From Nemertoderma westbladi (lineage: Eukaryota; Animalia; Xenacoelomorpha): a stretch of DNA of 45,241 bases. Below are positions 16,656 to 45,241 of the stretch, piece after piece; position 1 is the stretch's first letter; every line of letters begins with the position of its first letter. Below the pieces are notes generated by a model that saw nothing but the letters and a program-made list of their open reading frames with translations, was not told where the DNA came from and searched no databases. Where the stretch lies: positions 1-45,241 of the forward strand of contig JAUCBJ010006784.1 of NCBI GenBank assembly GCA_032718475.1, read 5' to 3'. The translations under genes and the position numbers were made by a program.

Positions 16656-17943
16656 TGTAAAAGCTTCTGTGGGATGCAACTGGTCCTTCGCCCCGCGATC
16701 CAGTTTTTCCCCCATACGCTGAAATACTCTGAAACCTGCTGTAAAAGCGTTTACAGATATAATTGGATCCCCTAGCCCTCGGGGTGCTGTATAAGTGTTT
16801 TTAACGGACATAAAATAGATTCTTCTGAATGTGTGCTTTATGCGGACGTAGCAGGGTACACAACCCGCAATGCGGCATTTCACTGTCACTATGTCAAGGG
16901 AAGGATTCTGATTACGACATCTCCCAGCTGGATGATGACGTGGAGGGAGCTCTCATTGGACTCCTGGTTCCTTTGTTTTGGTCTAACAACCAATCAGGGT
17001 GATTTGCGTTTTCCTTGAAGAGATACCTACAGCAGCTCCCAAACTCAGTGTTTATGTCGTTCCATACTGCCTGAAGATCGGCTGGAATGACGCAATGTTT
17101 CTGCCTTTTTATAAGAACATTAGTAGGCTAAATTATAGAAAGCATAGCTATTATCGATTCGATCCGATTCGATCCGATTCGATTCGACACGATTCCAATT
17201 TATAACTTAACGATTCAATGCAATCTAATTATATCTTAACCTACCGTCATACTGCTTTTACTGTTTGTAATTTTGTATCAGTATAATTGGATGTTATTAG
17301 TTGAAGAATATCAATAATCAACCCACATTTTCCCAATATCTTTGATACACTACAGGTTAGAGAGAAAGGTTATGTACAACAATTGCGACTTTATTATTGT
17401 GTTTGTAGTGAATCTAATGTTGTTTGACAGACACTACCTGAGTCCAGTGCATATCTCTTTATACCTGATCAAAGTCAGTAACTGTCGGCATATCAGTGAG
17501 CAGTGTTGTGCGTTACCGGTAGCGTGCGTGATTGTAAAGTGATTGGATCTGATAATAAAGCATTCCTAAAGAATGCGCCCTATGCTTGAAATTTAAGCCA
17601 TATCGTTGTGTGTAGTATCAGTCATAACTCTGTTTACATAGGTAGAGCGCCACGTCCTAAAAGGAACTGCTAATATTTCCCGAAAGTGAATAATATTTGT
17701 CAGAGATTATATATTAGTAATCAATCGAATAATACAGTAGGCTTGACCGCAAATAAATTTAAGCCCACGAATCCAGTCTCCCGGTGTTATAAACGGGTCA
17801 TTTGGACGCGCATGGACTGGCTTCGGCTAATGTTTTTGGTTTGTTTTGTATTAAATCTTATCATCTTACAAAAGGCAGATTATCAATAAAGACATATAAA
17901 TTTCGGCAGGTTAAACTGCTGAAGGTCTATAAAAGCGCGTACA
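16656..17943 (+). repeat. Element A 5' LTR
   Basis: Direct repeat of 27216-28503 (offset 10560). TATAAG at 17110, AATAAA at 17885. Confidence 0.95.
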
Positions 17944-17954
17944 ATAATAGCTAT
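17944..17954 (+). promoter_or_regulatory. Non-tRNA primer-binding site of A (ataatagctat)
   Basis: Directly follows the LTR and is the exact reverse complement of atagctattat at 17144-17154. Confidence 0.78.
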
Positions 17955-19938: not shown

Positions 19939-22900
19939 ATGGCTGACATAAAGAAAACTCTGTCAGATAGTCTTTTAGAAACAACAGCCTGTTTCTCAGA
20001 TCAAAGTGTAGAGAATCCTAGACCGAGATCTGAGACCCCTCCTACTGTAAGAAGGGCAACCCCTGCAGTAGTTGTGTCAGAACCTAGGTTGGTAGAAGCG
20101 ATTTCGCAATTTGCTAAGTTAGTGAAGCGCCGTAGGTCTGCCATAGGCACTCGGGCCCAAGTCAAACGGAACCCAGAGGAAGCTGTCCTATCGCAGCAAC
20201 ATCCTGATCACGAACCTAGTCCCCAGCGACCCGATAGCTCCAGTAGTTCGGAGACTGTTGAGCGGACACCCGAACGCGGAGCGAAAATGGTGGATACGGC
20301 TTGTGATGAGCGGCCAACCTTTGAAGAATCAACCGACGCCCCTTCTTCTCAAGTAGAAAGCGAAGTGGAAAGCGAAGTGGAAAGCGAAGTGGAAAGCGAA
20401 GTGGAAAGCGAATTAACACCAGAAGGACCACAAAAGAGAGATGCAATTGATACCTATTTGTCAGATTATCAGCGATTCATAGGAGACAAGGAGTTGAGAA
20501 GAAGACTGCATGGATTTACACCTAATAGTGCAGGGGCTAAGCGTGTATTGGACGAACTCGATGCTGAGATGTTAGCTAAAGATCAAGCTAAATTTGATGA
20601 GGAAAGACGCATCGCTAGAGCCCAGGAAACACAAGTCCAGAAAAAACAAATAGAAGATCGAAAGGCAGCAGCAGCGGCAGAGGCAGAGGCAGCAAGCAAG
20701 CTAGCAGCGGCAGAGGCAGCAAGCAAGCTAGCAGCGGCAGAGGCAGAGGCAGAAAGAAAATTGACAGAAGCGGAAAAGAGAGCTTCTGACGAGATCGCCC
20801 AACTAGAGTTGGCAAATCTGCAAGAGACACATGATTACATCAATAAACGCGACACAGAAAGTCGAATGAAGATACTGAGTCGATCTACTTCGAAACGCCA
20901 AGGTTTTACATCCTCAGAAGAAGGAGACACTACCGACACTGAAGGTGGAAGAAATAGATCCCGTCTCAGTAGGCGTAAAAGAATGTCTCCACGTCAGAAA
21001 TTGCCTGATTTGCCTCCAGCTGTTAAGAGACAACTAGCTAGCATAGCAGTAGATAGTACAGAACCCACAGACCAAACTATTACCATTACCAGACTCCCTA
21101 CTATAGTAGATGAGCCGGAAATAATTAGGCCTGTTCTAGAAAACACCCCTTCGGTGAGAGAGACCCCTGTACTCCCCAAATCTACTACCAAACTCCCTTT
21201 ACACAGTACTATTAAATTAACGGCACCTGGTGGAGCAGCCCAAGTCCCGGTTCTGGAGACTGAGAGAGACATACAAGATCTGTCTCCCGTCGCCCCGATA
21301 CGGCCCGCTACAACGTTGGCGACTCCCGCTTCGGCGGTCGAGTGGGTTGAGAAGGGACGGCGGGAGATGAGTCTCTTGCTCGGTCAAATGCGAGAACAGC
21401 GAGACTGTTCCTCGCAACAGATCCGGGACTTAGAAGGGACTGTCTACCAACTCAAGGGAACCGTAAGGGATAGTAGGATAGAGCTGCAAGAAGTGCAGCA
21501 AAATATCGCTCTCGAGCGCGACAAATTAGTCAATATACAAAGGGGAATACCAACACCCCCTGTAACCCTGTGTCAACCTGCTAGGTCGGAAGTGTATCAT
21601 GCGCGAGGTGTGTCGCCTACACGCATATATACTGCTAGCAAAGTAGAAACACCCCCTATAACCCTGAGTCAACCTGTTAGGTCTGAAGTACATCATGCGC
21701 AAGGTGTGTCGCCTATACGCATATATACTGCTAGCGAAGTAGAAACTCCTATAGTAAACCCTATTACGGGAGACTACAAACCTGTGAATAATGATATTCC
21801 CTATAGACCTGATAATGATCTGAAAAATTTATATACCGATAATTCGATATTAAATAACACGATGGCCCAAGAAAGCTTTACGCGTCAGATGGCTAGAACA
21901 GAAGCCCGCCAAGCGGTCAAAGTGGGAGAAATTGTCAAATTCAACGGTGATGAGATGAAATGGTTACCTTTTAAAGAATATTATGAAGATAGCATACAGA
22001 ACTCTGTACTATCTAGCGGAGAGAAACTGAGATTCCTCATCAAATGTTTGGAAGGACCTCCCAAGTTAATGGCGTTGAAGTTTATTGGACATCCAAATGG
22101 ATTAAGACAAGTCTGGGATACATTAAACACCAGGTATGGTAATAAAGATAATATCGCTAAGTATTTGTATGCAAAACTGGTAGCCCCTCGAAAGTTCCTT
22201 AGTAACGAGATTATAGAGTTTTCCGATGAGATTCAAGAAATCTGCCGACAATTGGATTGGTTAGGTAAGTCCCATGAATATCAGAGCTCCATGGTCATCG
22301 GAGCCATAGTCTCTACTTTGCCAAAGGGTGGAGTATGTACACGTTGGGACAAGAAGGTGTTGCATATGATGGAGCAACAACGACGGAGCCCCACCATGGT
22401 GGATCTCATGTCATTCCTAGACCGTGAGGTCAAACTACAACTAATAAAGCAATCCAGGGAAAAAACATCGGAAAATCAGGTAAGTGAAAAACCCGTTTCT
22501 AGGAAAAGAATAATACCCGTATGTTATACTGACGACGGCGAAAGCCAGACCTCCCATGAAGAAGACAGCGGGAAAGACACAGCAAGATCCTACGATGACC
22601 ACAAAACCCCGAGAGACGTAAGTAAATACCAGCCTCGAACCAATGATAGGAGAGACAAGCTTACCAAGACCCCTCCTCAGTCTCCCAAAGGAATTCAGGT
22701 AAGCAAGCCCGAAGAACGAGCGAAAGTGCACAGCATTGCCCAAGTTAAAGTGAGTAACATCAAACCAAAATGTGCGCTGTGCGACGGGCCCCACCGTTTG
22801 AGTGCGTGTGCGGAATTCCAAAAGAAATCCCTGGCAGATAGACGTGGAGTCCTGTGGGATAAGCGGTTGTGTTATAACTGTCTCAGACGCGGACACCAGC

Positions 22901-24204
22901 GGCGAACCTGTTACTCTGACGCAAGGTGTGCTAAGTGCGGCGCGAAACATCATAGCTTATTGCACACAGAATTCGAACGAAACCACCCGAGTCAGGTAAG
23001 TGAGCCCAAATCACATGTCCAATTCAGTGATGTGAACGACACTGACCAAAGTTCTGAGTGGGAAGGATTCTATACTGACGAATTCTCTGATGCCAACGAA
23101 TCCTGTTATCTAATAAACACCGCAGTGTATCGAGCACTTACGTACGAAAAGGATAACGACACGGAGTTTCCATCAACCTCCTTGGACAAGCAACCATCTC
23201 GGAAAACTCCAACATCCAACATAGGAATACGAGAATTTCCGGTAGTCCAGGTAAGAGTTCACGGTCCCAACAAAAGTTACATAGTGAACGCCCTCCTTGA
23301 CTCAGGTAGCACCGGAACATTCATCGACAAGGAGTTAGCCGAGGATATTTTTGCTGGACAACCCAAATTCCGAACTAAGTTAAATATGTCCGGAATTATG
23401 CAGGTTTGGAAATCTACCTTAATGGCAGATTATTATATCGGCGCATTGTCCACTCCACAGGATAAATTAGGGGAACAAAGTATAGAGTCAGTAAAAATGG
23501 TGGCAATAAAGAACTTCGCTACTACTCAAGTAGAACCTTATGACTGGGACGAGGACGAGAACATCCAACATTTGGGAATACCTCGATTCCAAACTGATTA
23601 TCCTGGAGTACAAATCCTTATCGGCCAAAACGCGCATGAGGCGCTCGAGACGTTAGAGAAACAGCCTGCTCAACCGCAGCCATTACAACCTTATGCGGTA
23701 AGAACTCGAGTAGGTTGGTACTTCACTGGCCCTTCCCGCAGAACCCTTGAAGAAAGACTGTCACAAGACCGGATACTTCAAGTAAAAGCTTGGGAAGAGG
23801 AGAGCAGTGAGGTGGACGAAGCCACTGAGGGAACAACATACTCCTCAGATAGCGACGATATCAACTCCAATGTAGATCAATGGAGACATCGACCCGAGAC
23901 GATTAATCTAGCCGACATCGCTTCCAGAGGAGTAACTCCTCAAGAACGGATAGATACTCCCGGCTGGTTGGGTGGACCCGACTCCCTAAGTAAAGAAGAA
24001 GAAGAATGGCCTCCTCGTCTTGCCGCGGCGGAGATTAGACAGGCCAAGGGAGCGGAGGAAATATCACGACGGCCTAATCGCCCAGCTGGTCGTTTAGGTT
24101 TACCGGGAAGAGACCGAAAACTGTCCGGAAACCATGGAAGGCAAGATACTCTTCCTACGACCACTTCCCTAATTCGACAAATATCTAGGGACTCCATCAC
24201 GTAA
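19939..24204 (+). CDS. gag: BEL/Pao Gag-protease polyprotein (1421 aa); RT, RNase H and integrase core deleted in frame
   Basis: DUF1759-like KFNGD..KW..F...LS.GEKL.FL, the BEL triple Cys/His knuckle (CALCDGPHRLSAC, CYNCLRRGHQRRTC, CAKCGAKHHSLLH) and protease ALLDSGS. No YxDD or DDE motif. Confidence 0.92.
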   Translation: MADIKKTLSDSLLETTACFSDQSVENPRPRSETPPTVRRATPAVVVSEPRLVEAISQFAKLVKRRRSAIGTRAQVKRNPEEAVLSQQHPDHEPSPQRPDSSSSSETVERTPERGAKMVDTACDERPTFEESTDAPSSQVESEVESEVESEVESEVESELTPEGPQKRDAIDTYLSDYQRFIGDKELRRRLHGFTPNSAGAKRVLDELDAEMLAKDQAKFDEERRIARAQETQVQKKQIEDRKAAAAAEAEAASKLAAAEAASKLAAAEAEAERKLTEAEKRASDEIAQLELANLQETHDYINKRDTESRMKILSRSTSKRQGFTSSEEGDTTDTEGGRNRSRLSRRKRMSPRQKLPDLPPAVKRQLASIAVDSTEPTDQTITITRLPTIVDEPEIIRPVLENTPSVRETPVLPKSTTKLPLHSTIKLTAPGGAAQVPVLETERDIQDLSPVAPIRPATTLATPASAVEWVEKGRREMSLLLGQMREQRDCSSQQIRDLEGTVYQLKGTVRDSRIELQEVQQNIALERDKLVNIQRGIPTPPVTLCQPARSEVYHARGVSPTRIYTASKVETPPITLSQPVRSEVHHAQGVSPIRIYTASEVETPIVNPITGDYKPVNNDIPYRPDNDLKNLYTDNSILNNTMAQESFTRQMARTEARQAVKVGEIVKFNGDEMKWLPFKEYYEDSIQNSVLSSGEKLRFLIKCLEGPPKLMALKFIGHPNGLRQVWDTLNTRYGNKDNIAKYLYAKLVAPRKFLSNEIIEFSDEIQEICRQLDWLGKSHEYQSSMVIGAIVSTLPKGGVCTRWDKKVLHMMEQQRRSPTMVDLMSFLDREVKLQLIKQSREKTSENQVSEKPVSRKRIIPVCYTDDGESQTSHEEDSGKDTARSYDDHKTPRDVSKYQPRTNDRRDKLTKTPPQSPKGIQVSKPEERAKVHSIAQVKVSNIKPKCALCDGPHRLSACAEFQKKSLADRRGVLWDKRLCYNCLRRGHQRRTCYSDARCAKCGAKHHSLLHTEFERNHPSQVSEPKSHVQFSDVNDTDQSSEWEGFYTDEFSDANESCYLINTAVYRALTYEKDNDTEFPSTSLDKQPSRKTPTSNIGIREFPVVQVRVHGPNKSYIVNALLDSGSTGTFIDKELAEDIFAGQPKFRTKLNMSGIMQVWKSTLMADYYIGALSTPQDKLGEQSIESVKMVAIKNFATTQVEPYDWDEDENIQHLGIPRFQTDYPGVQILIGQNAHEALETLEKQPAQPQPLQPYAVRTRVGWYFTGPSRRTLEERLSQDRILQVKAWEEESSEVDEATEGTTYSSDSDDINSNVDQWRHRPETINLADIASRGVTPQERIDTPGWLGGPDSLSKEEEEWPPRLAAAEIRQAKGAEEISRRPNRPAGRLGLPGRDRKLSGNHGRQDTLPTTTSLIRQISRDSIT

Positions 24205-27215: not shown

Positions 27216-28503
27216 TGTAAAAGCTTCTGTGGGATGCAACTGGTCCTTCGCCCCGCGATCCAGTTTTTCCCCCATACGCTGAAATACTCTGAAACCTGCT
27301 GTAAAAGCGTTTACAGATATAATTGGATCCCCTAGCCCTCGGGGTGCTGTATAAGTGTTTTTAACGGACATAAAATAGATTCTTCTGAATGTGTGCTTTA
27401 TGCGGACGTAGCAGGGTACACAACCCGCAATGCGGCATTTCACTGTCACTATGTCAAGGGAAGGATTCTGATTACGACATCTCCCAGCTGGATGATGACG
27501 TGGAGGGAGCTCTCATTGGACTCCTGGTTCCTTTGTTTTGGTCTAACAACCAATCAGGGTGATTTGCGTTTTCCTTGAAGAGATACCTACAGCAGCTCCC
27601 AAACTCAGTGTTTATGTCGTTCCATACTGCCTGAAGATCGGCTGGAATGACGCAATGTTTCTGCCTTTTTATAAGAACATTAGTAGGCTAAATTATAGAA
27701 AGCATAGCTATTATCGATTCGATCCGATTCGATCCGATTCGATTCGACACGATTCCAATTTATAACTTAACGATTCAATGCAATCTAATTATATCTTAAC
27801 CTACCGTCATACTGCTTTTACTGTTTGTAATTTTGTATCAGTATAATTGGATGTTATTAGTTGAAGAATATCAATAATCAACCCACATTTTCCCAATATC
27901 TTTGATACACTACAGGTTAGAGAGAAAGGTTATGTACAACAATTGCGACTTTATTATTGTGTTTGTAGTGAATCTAATGTTGTTTGACAGACACTACCTG
28001 AGTCCAGTGCATATCTCTTTATACCTGATCAAAGTCAGTAACTGTCGGCATATCAGTGAGCAGTGTTGTGCGTTACCGGTAGCGTGCGTGATTGTAAAGT
28101 GATTGGATCTGATAATAAAGCATTCCTAAAGAATGCGCCCTATGCTTGAAATTTAAGCCATATCGTTGTGTGTAGTATCAGTCATAACTCTGTTTACATA
28201 GGTAGAGCGCCACGTCCTAAAAGGAACTGCTAATATTTCCCGAAAGTGAATAATATTTGTCAGAGATTATATATTAGTAATCAATCGAATAATACAGTAG
28301 GCTTGACCGCAAATAAATTTAAGCCCACGAATCCAGTCTCCCGGTGTTATAAACGGGTCATTTGGACGCGCATGGACTGGCTTCGGCTAATGTTTTTGGT
28401 TTGTTTTGTATTAAATCTTATCATCTTACAAAAGGCAGATTATCAATAAAGACATATAAATTTCGGCAGGTTAAACTGCTGAAGGTCTATAAAAGCGCGT
28501 ACA
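27216..28503 (+). repeat. Element A 3' LTR
   Basis: Direct repeat of 16656-17943. Confidence 0.95.
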
Positions 28504-29535
28504 ACGTAGTACCTATAGCGATACGGCTATAGGTCGTCAGGCGGTGGTATTTTCCTATCTGGACAGTGCAATATATTTACTACTACTTATTATTTTCAAA
28601 TACCGTAGTACCCTGTCCGTTGTAATAAACAGAATTCTAACCCTTTGTTAGACTGGTTTGTAGACTTCCTGTAAAATTACCCTAAAATTTCGTACGTAAT
28701 ATTTTGTTGTATTTAATTAGAGATTTAATCTCACCCGTATCGTAAGTAATTTGTAGTATTAAGTAACTTAGGTAAATTAGAATTATCAGTTTTTAATGTC
28801 CAATAAATAGCACTTCACTGAGAGCGCACAGCTTCTGTGTAGTGACTTCCCCCAGAAATAATAACATTTATTTCAAGTATTGACAAAACCCATTTTAAAC
28901 GGGTATATAAATATTATAAATCAACTCAAACGATTTATAAATAGTAGGCCTGCCATACAACAACTAGGTCTCAATATCAGTTGGACTACTGCTTAAATAA
29001 CGGTAATAAAGTAAGTTAAAGTAACCAAGTAACCCTAAAATATTCAGAAATTCAATTATTCTAAAATAATTGATATACCGGTATTTACCATAGGCTTATT
29101 ATATTTATTTCTATAAATTTGTGCTGAAATCATACCGGTATTCTGTAATTAATTCTAGTTCATAATTATACTTATATATACTATAAGTGTAAGCTGCATA
29201 CCGGTATTCACGATAGGCCTATTATATATTTATATATATTTGTGCTAAAATTATATACCGGTATTCTGCGACAAACCTAGTCTGTAATAATACTTATATA
29301 TATTGTAAGCATACCGGTATTCTAATATATTGTATATATATCACGTTACACTGAGTAACGGTATCGGTAATCAATCGCTAGGCTTGCGGTCATACTGAAT
29401 TACCAGACTTGCTTTAACTGAAACTATAGTAGTAGACATTCAACTGTATAGCTAAACATTGTTCAAGAAACTTGTTCCCAGCGATCAGATAGCTCCAGTA
29501 GTTCGGATACTGTAGAGCTGACCCCCGAATGCGGA

Positions 29536-32500
29536 GTGCAGATGGCGGCTACAGCCTACTCGGATCCCCTTCTCACCCTTCCTGCCGCAGTGCTAACTAC
29601 TATATTGATTGCGGTGGAGGAACATCAAGCCGATTGGGTGAGAAGTAAGCGAGCGACCCAAGATAGTTATGCGGGATACGCCAGGGAAGAATTGATGTCT
29701 ATTGTCGAGTCACAATGGAACTTTCCCGGACCCGGACTCCCGTTAGATTTGTCCAAAGCTACTTGGGAAGATATACACAGGATGGGAGTGGCTAAAGATA
29801 CGATGGATCCAGCTGTTTGGAAGAGGTCGGCAGCAGGATATGTGCAGGGATTCTTCGGCTCCTTGGAGCGATTGGAAGAACAACTGTTTCGACAACCCCA
29901 AGGACCTCAAGAGCAGGAAGAGCTGCTATATCAAGTACGCGAAAGAACCCTACGCATTAGACTAATCCTATCAGCCTTTGAGGAAACTTCCAAAAGAAGA
30001 CAGGACACGTCGCTGCAGGTTGCTGTCAAAACTTGGTTCCAGCGGGTAGGTCTCAAAGTACAAGAAACGGACCAGTGGAAATCTCAGCTGTCTGAGAGAC
30101 TAACCTATGAAGAACCAACCGATGCCACCCTTTCTCAAGTGGAAGGCGAAGAGACCGCAGAGAGACCACGAACGAGAGACGCCATCGACATTTATCTGTC
30201 CGACTATCAGCGATTCCTAGGAGACGAAGAGTTGAGGAGACGGCTGTCTGGACTTTCCCCTAATAGTGAAGGAACCCAGCGTGTGTTAGACTCAATCGAT
30301 GCTGAAATGTTAGCTGCTAACCAAGCTGAATTTGATGAAAAACTCCGCCTCACTAGAGTCCAAGAAGAACAAGTAAAGAAAAAACGGATAGAGGACCGAA
30401 AGGCAGCTGCAGTAACAGCGGCAATGGCCGAAGTGGAAGCGGAAAGAAAGGCAGCGGCGGCAGAAGTAGAAGCAGAAAGAAAGGCAGCGGCGGCAGAAGC
30501 AGAAGTAGAAAGAAAGGCAGCGGCGGCAGAAGCAGAAGCAGAAAGAAAGGCAGCGGCGGCAGAAGCAGAAGCAGAAAGAAAGGCAGCGGCGGCAGAAGCA
30601 GAAGCAGAAGCAGAAATAAAAGCAGCAAAGGCAGTGGCAGAAGCAGAACGGAGAGCCTCTGAGGAGACTACCCAACTGGAGTTGGAAAATCTGCAAGAGA
30701 CGCAAGACAACATAAATAAACAGTTAACTGCTAGTCACATGCAGATGATGAGAAGATCTACTACCAAACGCCAGGGATATACGTCATCGGAGGAAAGCGA
30801 AACCACCGATCCTGAAGGCGGAGGAAATAGATCTCGTCTAAGCAGGCGTAGAAAAACATCTTACCGTCACAAATTGCCTGATTTGCCCCCAGCTGTGAGA
30901 AGACAACTAGCTAGCACAGACTAAAGTAGAATAGAACCTACAGACCAAATTATTAAGGTCAAAAAACTCCCTACTATAGTTGATGAGCCTGAAATAATTA
31001 GGCCTGTCGTTCCCAAAGTCACTCCTGTGCTAGAGACCCCTGTACTTCCAGAGCTTAACTCTAAGTTCCCTTTACACAGTACTACACTGCCTGTACCCGG
31101 TAGAACAGTCCATGAGAATATCCCTGTCCTGGAAGCTGAGAGAGAAATCAAAGATTTGTCTCCCGTCGTCCCGCGTCAGCCCGCTACAATGTTGGCGACT
31201 CCCGCTTCGGCGGTCGAGTGGGTAGAGGAGGGACGGCGGGGGATGAATTTCCTGCTCGGACAGATGCAGGAGACTGTCCACCAACTTAAGGGAACAGTAA
31301 GGGAAGGTAGGGCCGAATTGCAAGAAGTGCAGCAAAGTATCGCGCTAGAACGCGACAAATTAGTCAATATCCAAAAAGGGATGCCAATACCCCCTGTAAA
31401 ATTGTGTCAACCTGTTAGGTCTGAAGTATTACATGCGCAAGGTGTGGAGCCTACACGCATCTATACTGCTAGTGAAGTAGAAACTCCTATAGCAAACCCT
31501 ATTAAGGGTGATTATAGACCTGTTGTTAATGATATTCCTTATAGACCTGATAATGATCCGAGAAATTTATATACCGATAATTCGATATTAAATAACACGA
31601 TGGCCCAAGAAAGCTTTACGCGTCAGATGGCTAGAACAGAAGCCCGCCAAGCGGTCAAAGTGGGAGAGATCGTCAAATTCAATGGAGATGAGATGAAATG
31701 GTTACCTTTCAACGAATATTACAAAGACAGCATACAGAACTCTGTGCTATCTAACGGAGAGAAACTTAGGTTCCTCATCAAGTGCTTGGAAGGACCTCCC
31801 AAGTTAATGGCGTTAAAGTTTATTGGACATCCAGAAGGATTAAGACAAGTTTGGGATACATTAAACATCAGGTATGGTAACAAGGATAACATAGCTAAGT
31901 ATTTGTATGCAAAATTAGTAGCCCCCCGAAACTTCCTTAGTAGCGGGATTATAGAGTTTTCCGATGAGATTCAGGAGATCTGTAGACAATTGGACTGGTT
32001 AGGTAAGTCTCATGAATATCAGAGTTCCATGGTTATTGGAGCCGTAGTCTCTACTTTACCAAAGGGTGGAGTATGTACACGCTGGGACAAGAAAGTGTTG
32101 TACATGAATGAACAACAACGACGAAGCCCTACCATGGCTGATCTCATGTCCTTCTTAGATGGTGAAGTAAAACTACAACTCATCAAGCAGTCCAGAGAGA
32201 AAACATCGGAAAATAAGGTAAGTGAGAAACCCGCTTCTAGGAGAAGAGTAACACCAGTGTGTTACACTGACGACGGCGAAAGCCAAGCTTCTCAAGAAGA
32301 GGACAGTGGGAAAGACACTGGTAGATCTTACTACATTGACAAAACCTCAAAAGACGTAAGTAAATACAAAGCTCGAACCAACGATAGGAGAGAACAGGTT
32401 GCCAAGACCCCTCCTCAGTCCTCTAACAGAATGCACATAAGAAAGCCAGAACAAAGAACGAGAGTGCATCAGGTTACCCAAGGTAAAGTGAGTAACATAA

Positions 32501-35500
32501 AACCTAACTGTGCGCTGTGCGACGGTACCCACCGTTTGAGTGCGTGTGCTGAATTTCTAAAGAAATCCCTTGTAGACAGACGTGCAGTCGTATGGGATAA
32601 GCGGTTATGCTATAATTGCCTCAGACCAGGACACCAACGGCGAACCTGTTACTCCGACGTAAAGTGTGCAAAGTGTAGCGCGAAACATCACATCTTGTTA
32701 CACAGTGAGTTCGACCGAGACAACCCGAGTCAGGTAAGTGAGCCCGAACTACATGTCCAATTCAGTGATGTAAACGACACTGATCAAGAATCTGAGATGG
32801 AAGGATTCTATACTGACGAATTCTCCGACGCCAACGAATCCTGTTATCTAATCAATACCGCAGTGTATCGAGCACTTACTTATGAAAAGGACACCAACAA
32901 TGAGTTTCCCCCAACTACTTTTGCCAGACAACCATCTTGGAAAGCTCCAACTTCCAACGTAGGAATCAGAGAATTTCCTGTAGTGCAGGTAAGAGTTCAC
33001 GGTCCTAACAAAAGTTACATAGTGAACGCACTCCTTGACTCCGGCAGCACAGGAACATTCATCGATCAAGAACTAGCCGAAGATATCTTTGCTGGACAAC
33101 CCAAATTCCGGACAAAATTGAATATGTCAGGAATTATGCAGGTTTGAAAATCTACCCTAATGGCAGATTACTATGTAGGTGTGTTGTCCACCCCCCAGGA
33201 TAAATTAGGAGCACAAGGTATAAGGTCGGTAAAAATGGTGGCTATAAAGAACTTCGCTACTACTCAGGCAGACCTTTATAATTGGGACGAGGATGAGAGC
33301 ATTCAACATCTTAAGATACCTCGATTCCAGACAGATTATCCTGGAGTGCAAATACTCATCGGCCAAAACGCGCATGAGGCGCTCGAGACATTGGAGAAAC
33401 GGCCTGCTCAACCGCAGCCACTGCAAACCTATGCGGTAAGAACTAGAGTAGGTTGGTACTTTACTGGCCCTTCCCGCAGGACTCTCGAAGAGAGAATGCC
33501 ACAAGAACGAATATACCAAGTAAACGATTGGGAAGTGGAGAGCAGTGAGGTGGACGAACTAACTGAGGGAACACCATACTCCTCAGATAATGACGACATC
33601 TACCAACTCTTCGATGAAGAGAACACAATCGACCTACTTACAGAAAACCAAACTTGGAAAAATCAGGTGAACCTATGTCAACTGATTCGCCCATCGGAAC
33701 CCATCGCTTACAATGACGAACTAAACGATGAGATAGAGCGCTACAACGCTAGAACTCGGGACGAACTAGCCGTACGATTCTTTACTCAAGAACTGGTAGA
33801 GCCCAATTCATATGATAAGGCCCTATCAATAGAAGAAGAAAGAGCCAAGCAAATCCAGGAAACAACTACACGTTTTTTAAAGGACCAAGGTAGATATGAA
33901 ATCGGCCTACCATTTCGAAAACGAGAACCTAGATTTTTAAATAACAGACCCTTGGCAGAGAAAAGAATCGCTCAATTACATCGACGCCTTACGGCTAATG
34001 CTTCAGCTAAAAAAATGTACCAAACTCAGCTGAAGAAATTTATAACAAAGGGATACGCGGAGCGAGTACCGGAAGGAACACCAGTGACTGAGAGAACGTA
34101 TTACTTAACACATCATTACGTTCCCAAACCCGGTAAACCCCACGAAGTACGAGTCGTATTCGATGGCTCCGCCCTATATATGGGCCAATCCCTCAATTCC
34201 GAGTTGTTACCAGGACCCAACTTACTCCAATCTTTGTTGGGAATACTTTTAAGATTAAGACAATATTCCATCGCGTTCGCCTCCGATATAGAAGGAATGT
34301 TCTTACAAGTCAAGGCGCTGGATAGAGATAGAGACAGCCTGAGATTTCTGTGGTGGCCTGAAGGAGACCTCAATCAGAAACCGGTAGAGTACTGGATGAC
34401 CATCCAGGCTTTTGGAATCATATCAAGCCCTTCCAACGCCTGCTCCGTGGTGCGAACCACTGCGAATGACAACCGAGACTCCTTCTCAAAAGAGGTGATA
34501 GACAACATCAAACGGAATATATACATGGACGACAATTTAAGGTCCCTTCCATCAGTAGAAGAAGCCATAGATGTCGCGAAAGGAACGGTAGAGTGTTTGA
34601 AAAGAGGTGGATTTCGACTGACGAAATTCACCAGCAACTCCCGTGAGTTTCTGGAAGCGATACCGGTAGAAGACCGAGGAGCGAAAGACCTAGACTTAAT
34701 AAAGGACGATCTTCCTGAAACCAAGACGCTTGGCTTGAAGTGGGACACTGAAAGAGACATCCTGTTTTTTCAGTTAAAACAGCGAGATAATCCAGTTCGG
34801 ACCAAACGGATTTGTTTAAGTATCCTGAGCACTTATTTCGACCCATTGGGATTTATTAGCCCAGTTATATTGATTGCTCGGAGTTTAGTAACAAATGTGG
34901 CTTGAAAACCACTCATGGGACGATCCGCTTAAGGGAGAACTGTTAAAGAAATGGATGAAATGGGAAGATTCTCTACCTGCCATCGAGAACTTTATAATTT
35001 CCCGTGCATATTTTGGTCATGTTCTTCCTACGTATTCCTATCAACTCCATGTGTTTGGAGACGCCAGCGACATGGGAATAGGTATAGTAGCATATCTGCG
35101 AGTCGAAACTCCGGATGGAATCAAAGTCGCCTTGGTTACCTCTAAGGCATTGATTAACAACAAGTTAAAGGTTCCTCGAGCGGAGTTAAAGGCGGCTTTA
35201 TACGCTACAGCCATCGGCCGGAACGTAACAGAACAAATCGACTATCCACTGGAGAAAACGGTTTATTGGACCGACGCTTTACTCGTGTTGGAGTATCTAA
35301 CCAATGAAGTCTGTCAGTTCAGCGTTTTTGTTACTAACAGAGTAGCTATTATTCTTAGTCGCACAAAGATAGATCAATGGAGACATTGCCCTGGTACGAT
35401 TAATCCAGCCGATATCGCCTCCCGGGGAGCAACTCCACAGGAACTGATAGATACTCCAGACTGGTTGGGTGGACCCGACTTCCTGAGCAAGGAAGAGGAT

Positions 35501-37315
35501 GAATGGCCTCCTCACCTAACTACGGCGGAGATTAGACAAGCCAAGGGAGCGGAGACAGTCAAACCTAAAACCCGGGCGAGTAAATCGAAGTTATTTAAAC
35601 CGACTATCGATCTATCTGTATTACATACTTCCGGGAATGATGCTTCGGATCCACAATCCCTCAACACAAATAAGTCTGTTGTGGAAATTAGAGATAGAGA
35701 CTGGAAATCTGGAATACCAGACATCTCGCAAGGAATCTCACCCCTGCTGCAGAGAGCAATGCATCACTACAGTTCCTGAATTGGCTCTGTAAAGCCGTCA
35801 CGTATTTAAGGAGATGTTTTCATCATCACTACTCCAGGACGAAGACCATTAGTGATACCGCTCCATTGACATCTGCGCAAGTTCATGTTATTAAAATTTT
35901 ACCCAAATATAAAACATCCGACCGGTTTCTAAAGGAGAAAATTAGTTACCAGGAGCATGAAGAAACCAATAAGCAGATACTGAGACTCCTGCAATGCTAT
36001 GAGGATTCCGATAAGTATTTCCTATTGTTGAGAAATCCGCAGATGCGCTTAAGGGATCGATTCTCTAGCACAGTGATAGATGGGTTAATACGTGTTGGAT
36101 GTTCACAGTAAACTTTATCATGCTGGTAGAGAACGAGTTCTTAGCGAAATTCGAACTCGCTATTATTTTGATAAACCCCGTAGAGCTCTGAACCAAGTTC
36201 TTAGGAATTGCATACCCTGTAGGAAAGCATTCAGTAGGCCTTTAACACAGCGAGAGGCAGAATTACCTAGGGAACGAGTAAGCTTCTATGAACCACCTTT
36301 TACTAATACTGGTGTAGATTTATTTGGCCCTATTGAAGTATATCGTGCTAGGACTATAGTCAAGAGATGGTGTGTCATCTTCGTATGCATGACTTGTAGA
36401 GCCATCCATCTCGATATGGTGAACGATCTATCTACCAACAGCTTCGTCTTAAGTTTACGACGACAGATCGCTCGCTTCGGGACGAGTAATACCATGAGAT
36501 CGGATAAGGGAACGAACTTCATTGGTGCCAACAACGAAATACAGGCTTACGTGAAGGACTGGAACCAAAGACAGGTGGACGACCAGCTAAGGATAACAGC
36601 GTCTAGCTGGACCTTCAATGCCGCCGACGCCCCTTGGTGGGGAGGAAGTTGGGAGAGATTAATTCGAAGTGTCAAAACCGCATTTCACTTTATAGTGCCA
36701 TGCTGCGCGTATCTCACCGACGAACTTTTGCGGACGTTAATGGAGGAAATAGCTGCCTATCTCAACGAGAGACCGCTTATGCCAGTCTCATTGAGTCCCG
36801 ATTCCCTGGAAGCGCTAACACCCGCGCACTTCCTACTGAAGAAACCTGTAGCCATGCTCCCACGATCGGAGATTGCCGACGGAGACGAATACTGCCGTCG
36901 AACTTGGCAACTTATGCAGTTGCTATCCCATCGTTTCGCTGACCATTTCGAGAAACATTATCTGCCCACGCTACAACTTCGAACTAAGTGGTTTGCGCAG
37001 CAAGAAAACGTCAGCGCCGGAGATATGGTGCTTATTGTAGATCCAGACCTCCCACGTAAATGGTGGCAGACAGGTCGTATCATCGAGACTCACATCTCGG
37101 ATGATGGTTTAGTACGCTCGGTAGAACTCGTCGTCATGCGGCGTAACTTCAAGAAGCCAGGCATAATCTTTGAGACGCAACAACTCAATCGCCCAGTTGG
37201 TCGTCTATGTTTACTGGAAAGAGACAGAGAACTCTCTGGAAACTATGGAAGGCAAGACACTCTTCCCACGACCACCTCCCTAATTCCTCAAACATCTAGG
37301 GACTCCCCAACGTGA
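29536..37315 (+). pseudogene. gag-pol: Disrupted BEL/Pao gag-pol of element B
   Basis: Gag knuckles, LDSGS, RT (RVVFDGS, DIEGMFLQV, YMDD), RNase H (LHVFGDAS, YWTD) and integrase (GVDLFGP, SDKGTNF, PWWGGSWERLI). In-frame stops at 30922, 33145 and 35777, frameshifts near 34890 and 35780, and an apparent deletion near 36100. The start codon region is lost relative to A. Confidence 0.93.
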
Positions 37316-38939
37316 TACGTCTGGAGTGGGTGTATGACTATATTATTTTATCTATTTTATTATATTTTTATATGCGAACTTTATTATGTACTTTATTATA
37401 ATCGTTTTTATTCAATTTTATTTAGTAGAATGTTATTTTAGTGATTATTTAGTAGATTAGTGCAATATATTAGTGTTTATTATGTACGTAATTACTTATA
37501 ATATATATTTAGTGCGACGGCGAGAAATAATTTTTTCTCTTTCCTTACTGTCCGTATCATATTATAAATACGTGACTACAGTAAGATGAAATGTCCGTAC
37601 TTCTTAAAGTACAATAAAGCCACTACTATATTCAAGTATTATTGGTAGGCAGAGTATTAGGAATGCAAAATTCAGATCTTCGTGTCTCGGCTAAACCAAG
37701 CTCTGGGTAGACCTTGGAAACGACTTGCCTCTTCACACTGACATTGCTTCGTGCGATATTGCTCTTCTACCTTATATTAAATAATACATATAGTAGCGTG
37801 ATGTCCATATAACAGTAGCGTAAAACGCAAATAAATCTGTTAAACCTTTTGACCATCTGTAATTCTAGTTGATTAAGATATCGCGGCACCCACCGATATA
37901 CTTGAAAGACAAATTCTAGAATCAGTGGTTAACGTCCCCAGACAAGTTCTGGAATAAATCGGTGCCCATCTTAAATATTAATTTAATATTTAGTAAAATC
38001 TGTAAAATTCAGATCCTTTAAATTTCTAGTCAATTAAGATATCGCAGCACTTACCGATACTCTTAAAGGACAATTGTCATAGAATTAAGGATCCTATGCC
38101 CCCAGACCTGCTCTGGAATCAAATTGTGTCAATTTTAACATCAAATAATAAAATTCACGGGAATAAATTTAAATTCATATTTTAAATGAATTTCATAAAT
38201 TGTCATTTTGTGCAATTTATAACATTCCCAAAATTCCATTAATTAATAGATCATGGGAGCGGAGATTAAACCTATTGAGTGTATTAGAGTGCGAGAATCT
38301 CCAACATATAGTCAATAGCCGATAAAATTAATAAAATCATGCATAAAGAGGATATTGACAATTAAAGAATTACTATTAAATAGCATCCCAGATCTGCTAG
38401 CGGTAGAATTACCCTAATTCTACCGCTAGCATTCCATAATGTCACCATAGCAACACCCACGCTAGAATTAGAAGCAAGTTAAAAGAACAATAGAAAGCTT
38501 GTCCCATTGCATAGCATAGAGAGTACATGGCACACTGTTAGTATCCAAGGATACACAGTAATAACGTGACATTCTGGAAGGCACTGACTAACGGACAAAT
38601 GGCCTGTATGTGTACAATTGGTGACAGTTGTGTGGAATTTGTGAGTTTATAGGTGAATGTTACTGCTAAGGTATGTTTACAGTAGCTAGTCGCAATTGTA
38701 AAAGTAGCCCAACTCTCCTATAGAAAGAACCTAAGTGGATCTAAGCCTTTGGGACGGACAGTGGAGTGACTTGTGCCGGTTATCGTTGTCGTGCTGTTGC
38801 TACATGTTGGCGTAAACACCGCGACGACGGTACATCGGCGCTGAGAATCCCACTGTCCGGGGGCAAAGAGAGGTAGGCAGCGACGTCCGCTCGCCTAAAC
38901 ATAAACTCATTTCGATATTAATAAACTCAGATAGCAGAT

Positions 38940-40246
38940 ATGACGGAGTTGATAGAAGATGATCTTGGTATCAGGGAGCGATATACTCTACCTTTACAAG
39001 CATTTGTGGATAGCTTGATACGCGGTGAAACCGATCCAACCATTACGGAGGACGATGGTCGTTATATCGAACCGCCGATGTCCCAAGAGCAACTTACGCG
39101 TGAATTGGACTATCGAAAATTCACCGCTCGCTATACGCATCGTAATAGTACGTATATGGACTTCCTAACTACCGGCCATCCTATCGATTACATGATACGG
39201 AAGATGTAGACACCGAAAGGGAAATGGTTCTATTTAAATATCATACCCAGCGGAGTCGTAACGATAAACCGAGAATAGATCACGAAAATTCTATTCGTAA
39301 CAGACTGGGAAGACGAACCAATATGCCTAGAATCGGAGGAGATTCAGCCTATCGCGCCCGGAACAGCGACAACGATTACATCCTAGAATGGTATCAAGGT
39401 CCACAGTGTCTCACTGCGTACAATTATCACCATGCCAACTATGTTTCTCGGCAACGTTGTCGGTTATGCGCATCGAGAGACCATGTTACGCCCATGGACA
39501 CAAACGTCCGCTGTTCCTATTTCCACGAACAACCGGTGATGGAAATTTATTGCGCGTATTGCAGACTCAATAACTTGCACATTTTTGCGGTTTGCCCTCA
39601 ATTTATGACTCAATGTCACCATTGTCAACTAAAGGGACACGCTAGTTTCGATTGCCCTTTTAATCACGATTTGGAAAGCGTAGATGAAATGATCACACTA
39701 CGTTACATCAGAGCTTGGGAAGCGAACGCTGATTTACATTGTGATTCGCGCCATCGCCATTATCCTGGACGCGCTTATGAAGGAGTTTATGCGTTCCATC
39801 CTTATCTATTCGCTTCTGTCGAACAGAAATCACGCATATCGAGTTACGAGCTACTGAAGCGCGTCGGAGAATGTATATCGACGGCCTTACGAATACCGAG
39901 CCCGCGAACGCGAGTTGGAAAGAACCATTAAACCCCGGAGGTTTCTAACTGCCTATGGTCCACCCACGGCTCTCGTTCAGACCACTCGTAAAGGACCCGT
40001 AAGAGCGGCTGTCTTAAAACGCGCTCTCAAAGCCGTTAGACCCGCTCCCCCAATGTTGATGTCAATCAACCCGGCACTTCGACTGGCGGATACACCGACC
40101 ATAATCCTACACCCTCTGATGCAATCATATTGCACCCTTCACCCAGGAGTTATAGCCCTCCTTGTAAAGTGGCTCGCCCCAAAGAGAAAAGGACTCTGGC
40201 TAGCTTTAAAAAACTGCGTAAACGCCGTCCGCGCAAGAAAGACTAA
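38940..40246 (+). pseudogene. Accessory 3' ORF of element B: Cys/His (CCHC knuckle) protein with basic tail, frameshifted
   Basis: ORFs 38940..39209 and 39224..39931 join if a 1-nt deletion near 39188 (seen relative to A) is repaired. Motifs CRLC...H, CAYCRLNNLHIFAVC and CHHCQLKGHASFDC. Confidence 0.65.
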
Positions 40247-40323
40247 CTGTTTAGAGTATTTACATATATTAGAAACTGTGATTTTGTATATTTATAAACT
40301 TGAATCCCATTTTCTGGGAGCGG

Positions 40324-41507
40324 TGTAAAAGCTTTTGCGGATATACTCAGTCCCCCTCGCCCGCAAGGTACCGTTATAGGTGTTTTAACGGACATAAAAG
40401 TCATTCTTCGATATGTGTGCTTTGGTGGACATGGTAAGGCAAAAAACCCGCAATGCGTAAAATACCCTGGCACAGCTTAGCCTTGATGATTCAGATTACG
40501 ACATCTAACAGCTGGTTGCTGACATGGAAACGGCCATTGGACACATGGTTCTTTGTTTAGCGTAACAGCCAATCAGAGCGATTTTTTCTGTCGATGTGGA
40601 GCTTTTTGGCAGATCATGCTAGGAGTGTTCAGTCTTACTGTTTTTTCTTGATACTTTGTGTTGTTTCTATCTAGGCCAGGAACACCGGCTCTAGAGTCAA
40701 TTCGTTTTCAGACTTTTAGAAGAAACATTAGTAGGCTTAAGATTATAGAGCGTATAACTGTTATCGGTCCATATTAGTTCAATTCATAACATATCATATC
40801 TTAACCTACCGTCTTAATGCTTTTTACTGTTGTCATATTTTGTATCAGTTGGTTGAATATTATTTGGAGAACATTTATAAAGAACCCAAATTTCACAATT
40901 TTCTTGATAAACTACAGGTTAGAGAGACGGGTTATATATAGCGATTGCGACTTATATTATTGTGGTTTGTAGTGAATTTAATGCTATTTGATAAGCACTA
41001 CATGAGTCAGTTACTGTTCTCTTTATATATGATAAAATTCATTGACAGTCGGCAAATTAGTGAGCAGTATTGTGTGTTACCGGTAGTGTGCATGATTGTG
41101 ACTGATAACTAAGCATTTCCTAAAGAATGCGCCTCATACGTGAATCATAAGCCTTACCGACTTACCGTTGTGATTAGTATAGGTCATATCTCTGTTTATC
41201 TAGATAGAGCGCCACGTCCTAAAGGAACTGTTAATATTTCCCGAAAGTGAATAATATTAGTCAGAAATTATTTATTAACGATCAATCGAATAATACAGTA
41301 AGCTTACACTGCAATAATAATCTAAGCCCTCAGAATCCAGTCTCCCGGGTATATCCAGCGGGTGAATGGACGCGCACTAGGCTGGCTTCTGCTAATGTTG
41401 TGTTTATTGGTATTAAATATTTGTCAACTTCTAAAGTCTATTTATCAACCAAAAGACATATAAATTTTGGCAGGTTAAACTGCTAAAGGTCTTTAAAAGC
41501 GCGTACA
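40324..41507 (+). repeat. Element B 3' LTR (1184 bp)
   Basis: TGTAAAAGC...GCGCGTACA, same termini as A's LTR and internally diverged from it. Confidence 0.92.
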
Positions 41508-41768: not shown

Positions 41769-42690
41769 TAATTTATTAAATTATTATTTAATTAATAAAA
41801 TTCTATCGTTAATTCTATCCATCTGCGATAAATCAGCAGTTACTCTCACAGTTTCGAGACTTTGCAAAGTTATAAAGGTCGTTAGTCTCCGTTTAGGAAA
41901 ATTATTTTAAGACAAAACAGGACGAGCGCAACGAGGCTAATCAAGGAGAAGAGTATTGTAAAACTAAAAATGTCATACTTAACTTAAATAGCCCTCGTTA
42001 GAAGGTTTACAAATGACAGTTAAAGTGTGTAAGGGCAAACTGAAGTGGATCTCTGTTTTTACAACTAGTTTATCACAAACTGATAGCATCGCCTTCACTC
42101 ATATATATTTTGGGAAAGACAGTTTTTGTATATCTAATAGAGATTAGTATAATGTACTTTCTAATATAGGCTCTCGTGCTGCGTGAAGGCCCCACGAACG
42201 TGTATTGATTTACTGTTGTACCTTTTGATTTTGTTATATTTGATTACGTATTGTTAACTATATGGAGATTCTACTATATTAATACCGCTGTTGCCGTTAT
42301 CCCAACACCAGGGGGGAAAAACGCCGATGCTGGAGACGTGACTTTACAGACCACCGAGCCCCGGCCAGTCACCGGATATTGATTGTGGAGAAGGAATGTT
42401 TTCTGAGATGCAAGTTTGCGGTTGATAAAAAGCTGCATTAGTTGGATATACTCTTTAATGTAACTTCCTATAGTTGAAACCTGTTCAACATCATTGAAAC
42501 CTGATTAAGAATAATTTTGGGCTTCCCCAAATCAATATACACCAAATATTCACAATAATTATACACGATAATATAAATCCCTACGGTATATTATTTAATT
42601 ACCCACTGTTCGCTCAGATTTTAGCCTACCTAATGTTCCCCAGATTTTTCCCTTGGTCCTAGTCTTAGTGCCATAGTGTCGGTGTCGGTC

Positions 42691-43853
42691 GACCCTGTCG
42701 CGTGTCCGTTCCACCCCTCACGAACCCCGAAGGGAACGATCATCGAGAACCAGCACGGCTTGGCTAAGGGTCGGTCCAGTCGGTAGACTCTGTCGCGTAT
42801 CCGTACCGCCCCTCTCAAACCCCGAAGGGATCGGTCATCGAGAACCAGTACGGCTTAGCTAGGAGTCTGTCGTGTCGGTGGACCCGTTCGCGTGTCCGTT
42901 CCACCCCTCACGAACCCCGAAGGGTTCGATCATTGAGAACCAGAACGGCTTGGCTAGGGGTCCGTCGGTTCATCGCAGAAACCCAACCACCTAGGCTTTC
43001 CGAGTCCCTTTCAGGCTCGTAGTCGCTTCGGCAGCCGAGAAACTGCTCCGAACAGTCGGTAGGCCAGTAGAGTCTAGTCCTTTGTCTTTCGACCCCGTCG
43101 CGTGTCCGTTCCACCCCTCACGAACCCCGAAGGGAACGATCATCGAGAACCAGTACGGCTTGGCTAAGGGGTCTGTCGTCGGTTCCCGTCGCAGATCCCG
43201 GTACAAGCAGTCAGCGTTCCGAGTTCTTTTCAGTCTCGTAATAGCTGCCGTTGACCAGAGACCGCTAAGGGCAGTCCTCGTCAAACCCGTCCTGTGGCCA
43301 GCCCTTTCGCATGTCCGTCCCACCCCTCGCGAACCCCGAAGGGATCGGTCATCGAGAACCAGTACGGCTTAGCTCAGGGGGCAGTCGTTAGTCGGCCACC
43401 CGTTCGCGTGTCCGCTCCACCCCTCACGAACCCCGAAGGGTTCGATCATCGAGAACCAGAATGGCTTGGCTACTAAGGGGCTGTCGTTTCCCGTCGCAAA
43501 TCCCTGACACAAGCAGTCAGCGTTACGAGTTCTTTTCAGTCTCGTAATAACTGCTGTTGGCCAGGGACCGCTAAGGGCAGTCCTCGTCAAACCCGTCCTG
43601 TGGCCAGCCCTTTCGCATGTCCGTCCCACCCCTCACGAACCCCGAAGGGATCGGTCATCGAGAACCAGTACGGCTTAGCTCAGGGGGCAGTCGTTAGTCG
43701 GCCACCCGTTCGCGTGTCTGCTCCACCCCTCACGAACCCCGAAGGGTTCGATCATCGAGAACCAGAACGGCTTGGCTACTAAGGGGCTGTCGTTTCCCGT
43801 CGCAAATCCCTGACACAAGCAGTCAGCGTTCCGAGTTCTTTTCAGTCTCGTAA
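42691..43853 (-). ncRNA. Array of eight 82-87-nt structured repeats (kink-turn plus cUUCGg hairpin) with structured spacers; family unknown
   Basis: Units at 42691, 42785, 42880, 43091, 43301, 43395, 43607 and 43701, with compensatory stem changes and a 306-bp higher-order duplication. The repeat is certain; RNA function is inferred. Confidence 0.6.
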
Positions 43854-43965
43854 TATAATTTTGTTACAATGTTACACTAATACAGCCGGTAGCATAAACA
43901 CAGACTGAATTCCGACTAGCGTAACTTTTCGGTCGTGTCGAATTCGGCTCATCCGACGCTAGTGA

Positions 43966-43973
43966 TCTCTTCC
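43966..43973 (+). promoter_or_regulatory. Putative TCT initiator / 5' TOP start of RPL12
   Basis: Pyrimidine tract tctcttcc about 55 nt upstream of the ATG, as is typical of metazoan ribosomal protein genes. Confidence 0.5.
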
Positions 43974-44022
43974 ACGTTTCTGACAACCGTAAATCCAAAG
44001 GTAACATATTTTGATACACAAT

Positions 44023-44520
44023 ATGCCGCCTAAATTCGATCCTAATGAGATAAAAGTCGTATGTCTGCGAGTCGTAGGCGGAGAAGTTGGAGCAACTTCC
44101 TCGCTCGCTCCCAAAATCGGTCCTCTGGGTCTGTCTCCTAAGAAAGTCGGTGACGACATAGCGAAAGCAACCACCGAATGGAAAGGTCTCCGGATAACGG
44201 TTAAACTCACAATCCAAAACCGACAGGCGCAAATATCCGTCGTACCTTCGGCATCCGCTCTCATTATAAAAGCACTGAAAGAACCTCCGAGAGATCGTAA
44301 GAAAGTCAAGAATATTTCCCACTCCGGGAATATAACAATGGATAACGTCTTGGAAGTGGCGCGTATAATGAAAGATCGATCCATGTCTAAAGATTTCACC
44401 GGCACTGTTAAGGAAATCCTCGGCACCGCGCAGAGTGTTGGGTGTAGAGTCGACGGTAAACATCCTCATGATGTTATCGACGAGATTAACGACGGGGAAT
44501 ACGATATTCCCGACGCGTAG
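44023..44520 (+). CDS. RPL12: 60S ribosomal protein L12 (uL11), intronless
   Basis: [47 protein letters not shown]...[12 protein letters not shown]; intact 165-aa ORF. Confidence 0.97.
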
Positions 44521-45241
44521 ACTGGCTGTCCTGTCGGTTTAGTGATAGCCCTATCGTACTGGAGTATGTTGCGTCGGTAGGAGATGTCAATGGATTAAGG
44601 TGCTTCTATTTATCTCTATAGCCATTGTTTTGGTGTATATAAATTCTTGTACGCCAGTATAAATGCAATAATACAATATATACTAATAATAATGGCTGTT
44701 ATAAGTTTTGAATTTTAATTGTGAGTTTTGCTGGTGATTGATACAATTACTATTTCTAAATAGTTTTATTAACAAAGAGCATATAAAAGAAGCACTTGCC
44801 TGTTACAGGTTCTAAAAAAAAGTCCTTTAGGCCTGGCGCATTACCAAATCCACCCCTACAGGCAGCAGGAAGTTGGCCAGGGCCTAATAGTACTCAGGCT
44901 AACCTGAATACTGCTTGCATTTTCCATCCCCCCCTGGCCCTTATAACTATGAAATTATTCCCGTACCCTGTAAGTTGCCCCAAAGTTCGCCCATAAATCG
45001 CCCCCAGTTTATTGAATGTGCCCAAAACCCATGGTCCCGCACCCAGTAGTAATATCAGAATAATCAATTTTAAATAAATACAAAGATATTCAACTCGCGT
45101 TATGGAAAGTTGAAATACCGCGAACAACCGCATAACTTCCAACTTGTTTATATTTGTATTATACGAGGTAAGCTTTGGGCGGCAAATTATCAGTTTCAGT
45201 TCACAATTCAGTGGTGTGCGTGAGAATACATGTTATCTGAT

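Follow-up and report, generated by a model that had tools for sequence, protein, structure and literature searches.

The window analysed here, a stretch of 45,241 nucleotides, is animal DNA carrying broken BEL/Pao elements, a Fis1 frame, a GPCR fragment and an intronless RPL12. The Fis1 frame (6874-7404) runs uninterrupted for 176 codons and is possibly another processed copy. Two related BEL/Pao elements, 74-88% alike, were found at 19939-24204 and 29536-40328; one has a long internal deletion and the other is split into several frames. Extra shared frames lacking a Pfam match follow the BEL/Pao elements (39224-40328). Around these elements lie near-identical direct repeats at 16656-17954 and 27216-28516 (99.7%) and at 14826-15346 and 40987-41507 (99.6%), which are perhaps the long LTRs of the BEL/Pao elements.

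Near the right end of the window we found an array of hairpin units of two types, A and B, inside a 2,838-bp insertion (42289-45126, minus strand). The insertion has TGTT...AACA ends and is flanked by a 5-bp target-site duplication, reading ACCGC on the plus strand at both 42284-42288 and 45127-45131. Its termini are inverted-complementary at 13 of 18 bases. TG...CA ends with short inverted repeats and a target duplication of 4-6 bp are features of LTRs, and all of them were found here; the wider TGTTRNR/YNYAACA consensus, as given in the accessible part of PMC3601003, is matched only in part by the element ends. The BEL/Pao elements of the window have different ends and do not share this putative LTR. 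No second copy of the element was found in the 45-kb window. The flank hit by the insertion (42000-42217) is itself a high-copy repeat.

The element is dispersed in many copies with sharp ends: depth rises at 42289, at which point the flanks of other copies differ, and flank-to-flank joints across the element were found in public runs. In DNA run X1, the summed contig depth was 25,000-126,000 over 42327-43852 and 35,000-62,000 over 44834-45160, compared to a depth of 27 over RPL12 and 20 at the unique flank. In run X2, single contigs reached about 10,000 over the element versus 17 at the unique flank. Depth is not a copy count, and these values point to an element present in hundreds of copies or more. 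In addition, other copies in the public runs showed joints skipping 306-934 bases within the array, and one 886-nt contig contains one B and one A unit only. The number of A and B units therefore varies between element copies.

An earlier, sequence-only reading of the array had raised both a mobile-repeat origin and a displaced rDNA spacer. The ends, the target duplication and the repetition support the former. The latter is contradicted by the TG...CA ends, the target duplication, the differing flanks in other copies and the absence of any rRNA match in the 45 kb. That reading had missed the LTR-like boundaries, the B hairpins and the RPL12 insert; the mobile element reaches far past the coordinates given in it, and the units within are thus no separate ncRNA gene.

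Consensus matches on the minus strand revealed a TATA-like TATAAG (44940-44945) as candidate LTR promoter and, at 42594-42599, an ATTAAA followed by a GT-rich stretch as candidate polyadenylation signal. A second ATTAAA is found at 42454-42459. A predicted 10-bp hairpin (44889-44912, minus strand), which follows the TATA-like box after about 30 nt, is a candidate for the start of R. No poly(A) or poly(T) end near 42575 was present among the ends listed. LTR-like positions are likewise occupied on the plus strand, by a TATAAA (42572) and an AATAAA (45073). In the 886-nt contig, a run of seven Gs is located two bases outside the minus-strand 5′ end, which is the position of a polypurine tract; the LTR polarity is read from this one contig, of depth 5.7 and from a run labelled as another organism. 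We saw no internal coding region tied to the LTR, and neither a primer-binding site nor gag-pol between LTRs was present among the loose ends listed. The termini, the depth step, the joints and the G-run suggest that the whole element, with its RPL12 insert, is probably a solo LTR of minus polarity.

Public run X5, recorded as "DNA?", behaves like RNA, with a poly(A) loose end at 44821, a very high depth over RPL12 and an uncovered unique flank. Contigs of this run cover the element; such contigs show neither strand nor level, and DNA carry-over could equally produce them.

The RPL12 insert

The intronless RPL12 (uL11; Pfam PF03946 and PF00298) occupies 43856-44821 on the plus strand, with its CDS at 44023-44520, and ends in an A8 tail. 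The insert of 966 bp has no introns in the coding region, is antisense to the inferred LTR and takes the place of roughly the first 29 nt of B1. In runs X1, X5 and X6, we found a joint leading from 43584-43588 to 44822-44828 without RPL12, which means that other copies of the element do not carry this gene. The same finding led us to reject the idea that the RNA arises from a bidirectional RPL12 promoter. The template-switch retrocopy described in the accessible part of PMC5131818 has no tail, and the poly(A) remnant of RPL12 appears to fit non-LTR retroposition better. Compared to runs X1 and X5, the CDS has at least three differences, all those listed being at third codon positions, as might be expected for a working allele. 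The RPL12 protein is at most 81% identical to the listed proteins, with echinoderms among the best, and neither the RPL12 nor the Fis1 protein had an exact match in the protein look-up. As regards the array, RPL12 is a passenger.

Several further observations were made on this insert. In run X1, there is one intronless RPL12 contig, which has single-copy depth and shares the poly(A)-to-LTR junction. Upstream of 43885 it carries 487 different bases, and no other RPL12 cover was seen there, with the caveat that the filter may conceal exon contigs. The intronless copy may be the working gene, and its 5′ side may vary from one individual to another. The first 30 bases of the insert (43856-43885) resemble a 3′ splice site (T-rich, CTAAT, ACAG) and end at the point where the X1 contig diverges. 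A TCT-like CTCTTCC is located within the insert near 43968, and X5 contigs reach upstream of it. A 201-codon frame antisense to RPL12 (43864-44469, minus strand) has no Pfam match and is most likely a shadow frame.

A units and B hairpins on the minus strand

The eight A units of about 85 nt each that had been noticed from the sequence were confirmed at 42691-43787 on the minus strand. The 5′ half of a unit consists of a closing stem, GCYAAG, an 8-bp stem, GU, UCUC, RAU, GA, the 3b position, a 7-bp stem and UUCG; in the 3′ half, the 7-bp stem is followed by the 3n position, GA, GGGG, the 8-bp stem, AYAYGCGA and the closing stem. By motif reading, A1 (43704-43787) contains a receptor-like loop, a kink-turn (k-turn) with U:U at 3b:3n, and UUCG. 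The corresponding 3b:3n pair is C:U in A2 (43607-43688), U:U in A3 (43398-43481), C:C in A4 (43301-43382), U:U in A5 (43091-43173), U:U in A6 (42880-42963), which has an AAU bulge, C:A in A7 (42786-42867) and U:U in A8 (42691-42772). GA/GA is invariant and UUCG is carried by all eight units, in agreement with the near-fixed bases reported before.

All A units further have the RAU bulge and C:G at both -1b:-1n and 4b:4n, and the variation among them falls on L1, 3b and 3n. These are the positions free to vary under the k-turn rules given in the accessible part of PMC8191799, and the k-turn identity claimed earlier is borne out in so far as the sequence of all eight A units fits the consensus published there. 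At 3n, the units of the window have U, C or A, and G was found in other copies at 8-14% of depth in four runs. The occurrence of all four bases fits a position that would not be Watson-Crick paired. Among other copies, we also found a G-to-A change in the basal GCGA (4-11% of depth). P2 and the stem below UUCG both accommodate mismatches.

In a scripted k-turn test, which was written post hoc with the A units already seen, all eight units passed on the minus strand and none on the plus strand. Between 0 and 4 of 3000 dinucleotide shuffles passed per A unit, and none of 3000 when the k-turn and the UUCG hairpin were combined, for each unit. In the rest of the window, 0 of 890 tiles passed. Since the eight A units have one common ancestor, this result counts as one event and not as eight.

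The array had been described as consisting of eight units. The units themselves stand, but they are not alone: four B hairpins of about 105 nt are interleaved, giving the minus-strand order B-A-A, B-A-A, B-A, B-A-A-A. An identical hexamer (AGTCCT on the plus strand, at 43076, 43273, 43579 and 44821) marks where each module begins. From sequence and fold, B1 (43788-43855) is a 5′-truncated hairpin and B2 (43482-43584), B3 (43174-43278) and B4 (42964-43081) are long hairpins, all on the minus strand and with a GAAA tetraloop. The internal loops UAUUA/GAAC, found in B1 and B3, and GACUA/GAAA of B4 are presumably of loop-E type; in B2, the loop-E-like 3′ strand is UAAC. The predicted energies of the single long hairpin are -45.0 kcal/mol for B2, -44.7 for B3 and -46.2 for B4, that of B3 being 0.1 kcal/mol above its minimum-energy fold. 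B4 has diverged (67 of 114 aligned bases are equal to B2) and, despite this, keeps the CGAG/CUCG stem, the GAAA tetraloop and the loop-E-type internal loop. A basal A-GC...GC-GA motif is common to A and B.

The 11-nt GAAA receptor has the signature CCUAAG...UAUGG. The internal loop of the A units, GCYAAG...YAYGC, shares with it at most 8 of 11 bases (best in A2, A4 and A7), and exact receptor strands are absent across the array. As in the receptor, all A units have C2:G10, the AA platform, G6, A8 and the spacing, and the GAAA loops of all B units would correspond to the other half of a tetraloop/receptor pair. In contrast to the receptor, C1:G11 is inverted in all eight units, C replaces U3 in five and G:C replaces G6:U7 in seven, the latter pair being kept in one. 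Changes at C1:G11 and G6:U7 destabilise the receptor or weaken docking, according to the accessible part of PMC2275092, and the main text of PMC11571812 gives no receptor-variant sequences. Judged from its bases, the internal loop of the A units is similar to the 11-nt GAAA receptor without being identical to it.

We folded nine segments covering six of the eight A and three of the four B units; A1 and A2 were omitted because they nearly duplicate A3 and A4, and B1 because it is truncated. In all nine, the minus strand had the lower energy and the lower z-score. Only five of the nine had a z-score of -2 or below, and the least redundant stretch, B4-A6-A7-A8 (391 nt), had a folding z of -1.27. 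Together with the k-turn consensus, the strand preference supports the earlier suggestion that the minus strand specifies a multivalent, structured RNA. The claim of compensatory stems held up in part: two of 29 pairs do change on both sides, but both of these lie in A7, and 253 of 500 shuffles reach the same level. In four of the eight A units, the P2 position that varies lacks a pairing partner.

A slipped structure, in which UUCUC pairs two bases out of register and buries the second GA, was computed to be better than the k-turn by 3.4-4.4 kcal/mol in all eight A units. In the nearest-neighbour ensemble, whose model contains no k-turn term, the slipped fold dominates and the k-turn C-G pair has a probability of at most 0.004. 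For the slipped structure, two of 31 pairs change on both sides, which is matched by 271 of 500 shuffles. These pair counts cannot tell the k-turn from the slipped register. Free variation at 3n points to the k-turn, whereas the computed energy points to the slipped pairing. Box C/D k-turns form upon protein binding (PMC5689011, accessible part). On the folding model, the k-turn of the A units would either form only upon protein binding or not be formed.

The single-stranded linkers between the units (42680-43800, minus strand) appear rich in CGAC/CCGAC words. These could be repeated protein sites, e.g. for nucleocapsid.

The comparison with Infernal and Rfam that the sequence-only reading had called for returned no family, with no matches in the window at the gathering score. 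With Rfam 15, no match at E up to 10 was found over 42300-44100 and 44700-45241, and no tRNA was found. When model R1 was run on the window, five of the eight A units were returned (overlapping neighbours being dropped), together with one further weak match at 31163-31254 (13.5 bits, E 0.16). No relatives with the exact-core pattern were found in viral or metagenome contigs. A loose pattern gave 88 viral stretches, and none of the 80 of these that were listed and scored fits model R1. A geometry pattern gave ten metagenome and three prokaryote loci, none of which (0 of 13) fits the model either.

Possible roles of the array

We give an even chance to the array being an RNA element that acts in cis within the retrotransposon transcript and binds proteins in a multivalent manner. 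With a probable location in U3 or R, the array would be carried in the 3′ untranslated end of the genomic RNA; a transcription start behind the TATA-like box at 44945 would place it at the 5′ end as well. In each A unit, a host protein of the L7Ae family, most likely 15.5K/Snu13, would find a k-turn, and its binding would draw the unit away from the competing slipped pairing. SBP2 is less suited than 15.5K/Snu13 to a 3-nt bulge with a protruding U (PMC1874613, accessible part). 15.5K on C/D-type kinks suppresses intron excision, as reported in the accessible part of bioRxiv 10.64898/2026.08.03.742641. Receptor-like loops of A units, whether in the same RNA or in a second one, may be docking sites for the GAAA loops of the B hairpins, resulting in compacted or paired genomes. 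The RNP might then protect, export or package the unspliced RNA, like structured 3′ retroviral elements, and template slippage could add units and thereby raise the valency.

A further-reaching reading, which we regard as rather doubtful, is that this LTR family evolved a modular RNA scaffold, tunable by copy number and loaded with 15.5K/Snu13, or else that A and B form a new class of ribozyme. As a scaffold, B-A docking would pair genomes, and k-turns switched by protein would keep the RNA unspliced and protected.

It is unlikely that the array is a relic, i.e. that the LTR took up a structured RNA of host or foreign origin a single time and that template slippage then multiplied it, with a fold no longer under selection. 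Such an origin would be consistent with covariation not above that of shuffles, with the modest z of only -1.27 over the whole stretch and with the tolerated mismatches in P2 and the UUCG stem. The listed variants also fit, being of similar density in the A8 region (7 in 95 nt) and in the flank (33 in 392 nt; 40 of the 43 listed), and RPL12 was likewise taken up by the element copy in the window. However, Rfam contains no donor family, and B4, about 60% alike to B2 and B3, has kept the fold and the GAAA loop. Moreover, five of the seven listed variant sites of the A8 region are at positions that vary among the units of the window, and none of the seven is on GA/GA or UUCG. We see little chance that the repeats act as DNA, as a U3 enhancer, or that the LTR is a plus-strand one with the hairpins in antisense RNA or without a role. 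Tandem repeats are common in U3 (PMC3601003, accessible part), TATAAA and AATAAA occupy LTR-like positions on the plus strand, and RPL12 lies on that strand, as template-switch capture would yield. Yet UUCG, GAAA, the k-turn and the G-U pairs are RNA motifs of the minus strand, and the G-run flank favours minus polarity. The poly(A) remnant of RPL12 would fit a non-LTR retroposition indifferent to strand (PMC5131818, accessible part).

It seems quite improbable that either A or B represents a new class of self-cleaving ribozyme and that cleavage in each LTR would release circular or unit-length RNAs as in retrozymes. Plant retrozymes carry ribozymes within their LTRs, and a GAAA loop, a receptor-like loop, a k-turn and a loop-E-like motif are the tertiary kit of compact folded RNAs; A and B have a kit of this kind and share the basal A-GC...GC-GA motif. 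On the other hand, no CUGANGA is found on either strand of the element, nor are a hairpin-ribozyme loop B strand or a minus-strand HDV L3 motif present in it, and no Rfam ribozyme family was matched around the element at E up to 10. Twelve cleavage sites per LTR would also fragment the genomic RNA. The CUGANGA block is needed by hammerheads, permuted forms included (PMC10085705, accessible part), so hammerheads of any permutation are excluded, and with them retrozymes as defined, which the sequence-only reading had brought up. Free-standing H/ACA- or C/D-like guides, SECIS-like recoding signals or a fragment of an rDNA spacer have scarcely any chance of being the right explanation, although the AUGA/GA core and the stem-pocket-stem-kink layout are alike. 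In H/ACA RNAs, each hairpin is followed by an ACA box at a distance of about 14-16 nt from the pocket. Here, the pocket is near-invariant and ACA is inconsistent, being found 19-20 nt after the start of the 3′ strand of the pocket in five of the eight A units and absent within 40 nt beyond the closing stem in three, which speaks against an H/ACA-like guide. A box C (RUGAUGA) is absent from either strand, the A units reading RAUGAYC and NGA, and their C:G at 4b:4n means that there is no box C/D. SECIS elements have a 14-15-bp helix 2 and an apical AAA/G (PMC2761289, accessible part), as opposed to the 7 bp and UUCG above the GA pairs in the A units. The rDNA reading is opposed by the lack of rRNA in the window and the transposon-type ends. 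The guide, SECIS and rDNA readings are thus largely excluded.

The proposed cis-acting RNA element bears on a subject that has been little mapped, namely RNA signals for export, protection and packaging in invertebrate LTR retrotransposons. If the k-turns bind 15.5K/Snu13, the transposon would use a core protein of the host snoRNPs and U4. Hundreds of copies differing in unit number would, if the proposal is true, provide a natural dose series of RNA valency versus transposon success. In addition, dispersed copies would plant k-turn arrays, motifs reported to affect splicing, in host introns.

Comparison with known systems

The A units share with the standard k-turn of the L7Ae family, as described in the accessible part of PMC8191799, the RAU bulge with its protruding U, the tandem G:A/A:G pairs and C:G at -1b:-1n. 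Unlike standard k-turns, they occur in eight tandem copies in a mobile element, have a weak C-stem with two G-U pairs and have a more stable slipped alternative. The k-turn of U4 carries its hairpin on the non-canonical side, and so do the A units. Eukaryotic SECIS elements are similar in having an AUGA/GA k-turn core and in the likely location in a 3′ untranslated region, but they have a large internal loop in place of the 3-nt bulge (PMC2761289, accessible part).

Like plant retrozymes, the element is a high-copy retroelement sequence with a structured RNA inside a terminal repeat. Animal retrozymes are non-LTR and linked to Penelope, unlike the present element with its TG...CA ends and 5-bp duplication. 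As a scaffold, the array would be a natural counterpart of the designed tectoRNA. We found no description of a k-turn or tetraloop-receptor module in an LTR in the literature searched, which was mostly without subscription papers.

Among retroviral elements, the accessible part of PMC12789967 describes the MPMV CTE and the MMTV RmRE, located at the 3′ LTR or overlapping it, and a repeated element of RSV; these structures recruit proteins for the export of unspliced RNA. Elements of the CTE/RmRE type bind NXF1 or a viral Rev-like protein and are not described there as k-turn arrays. Like the CTE, the RmRE and the RSV direct repeats, the array would be a structured cis RNA of an LTR element, likely at its 3′ end. 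It differs from them, by description only, in that its units, of two types and variable in number between copies, lie inside the LTR. As a structured cis-element of an LTR, the array would be of a known kind; its modular build from A and B units is unusual.
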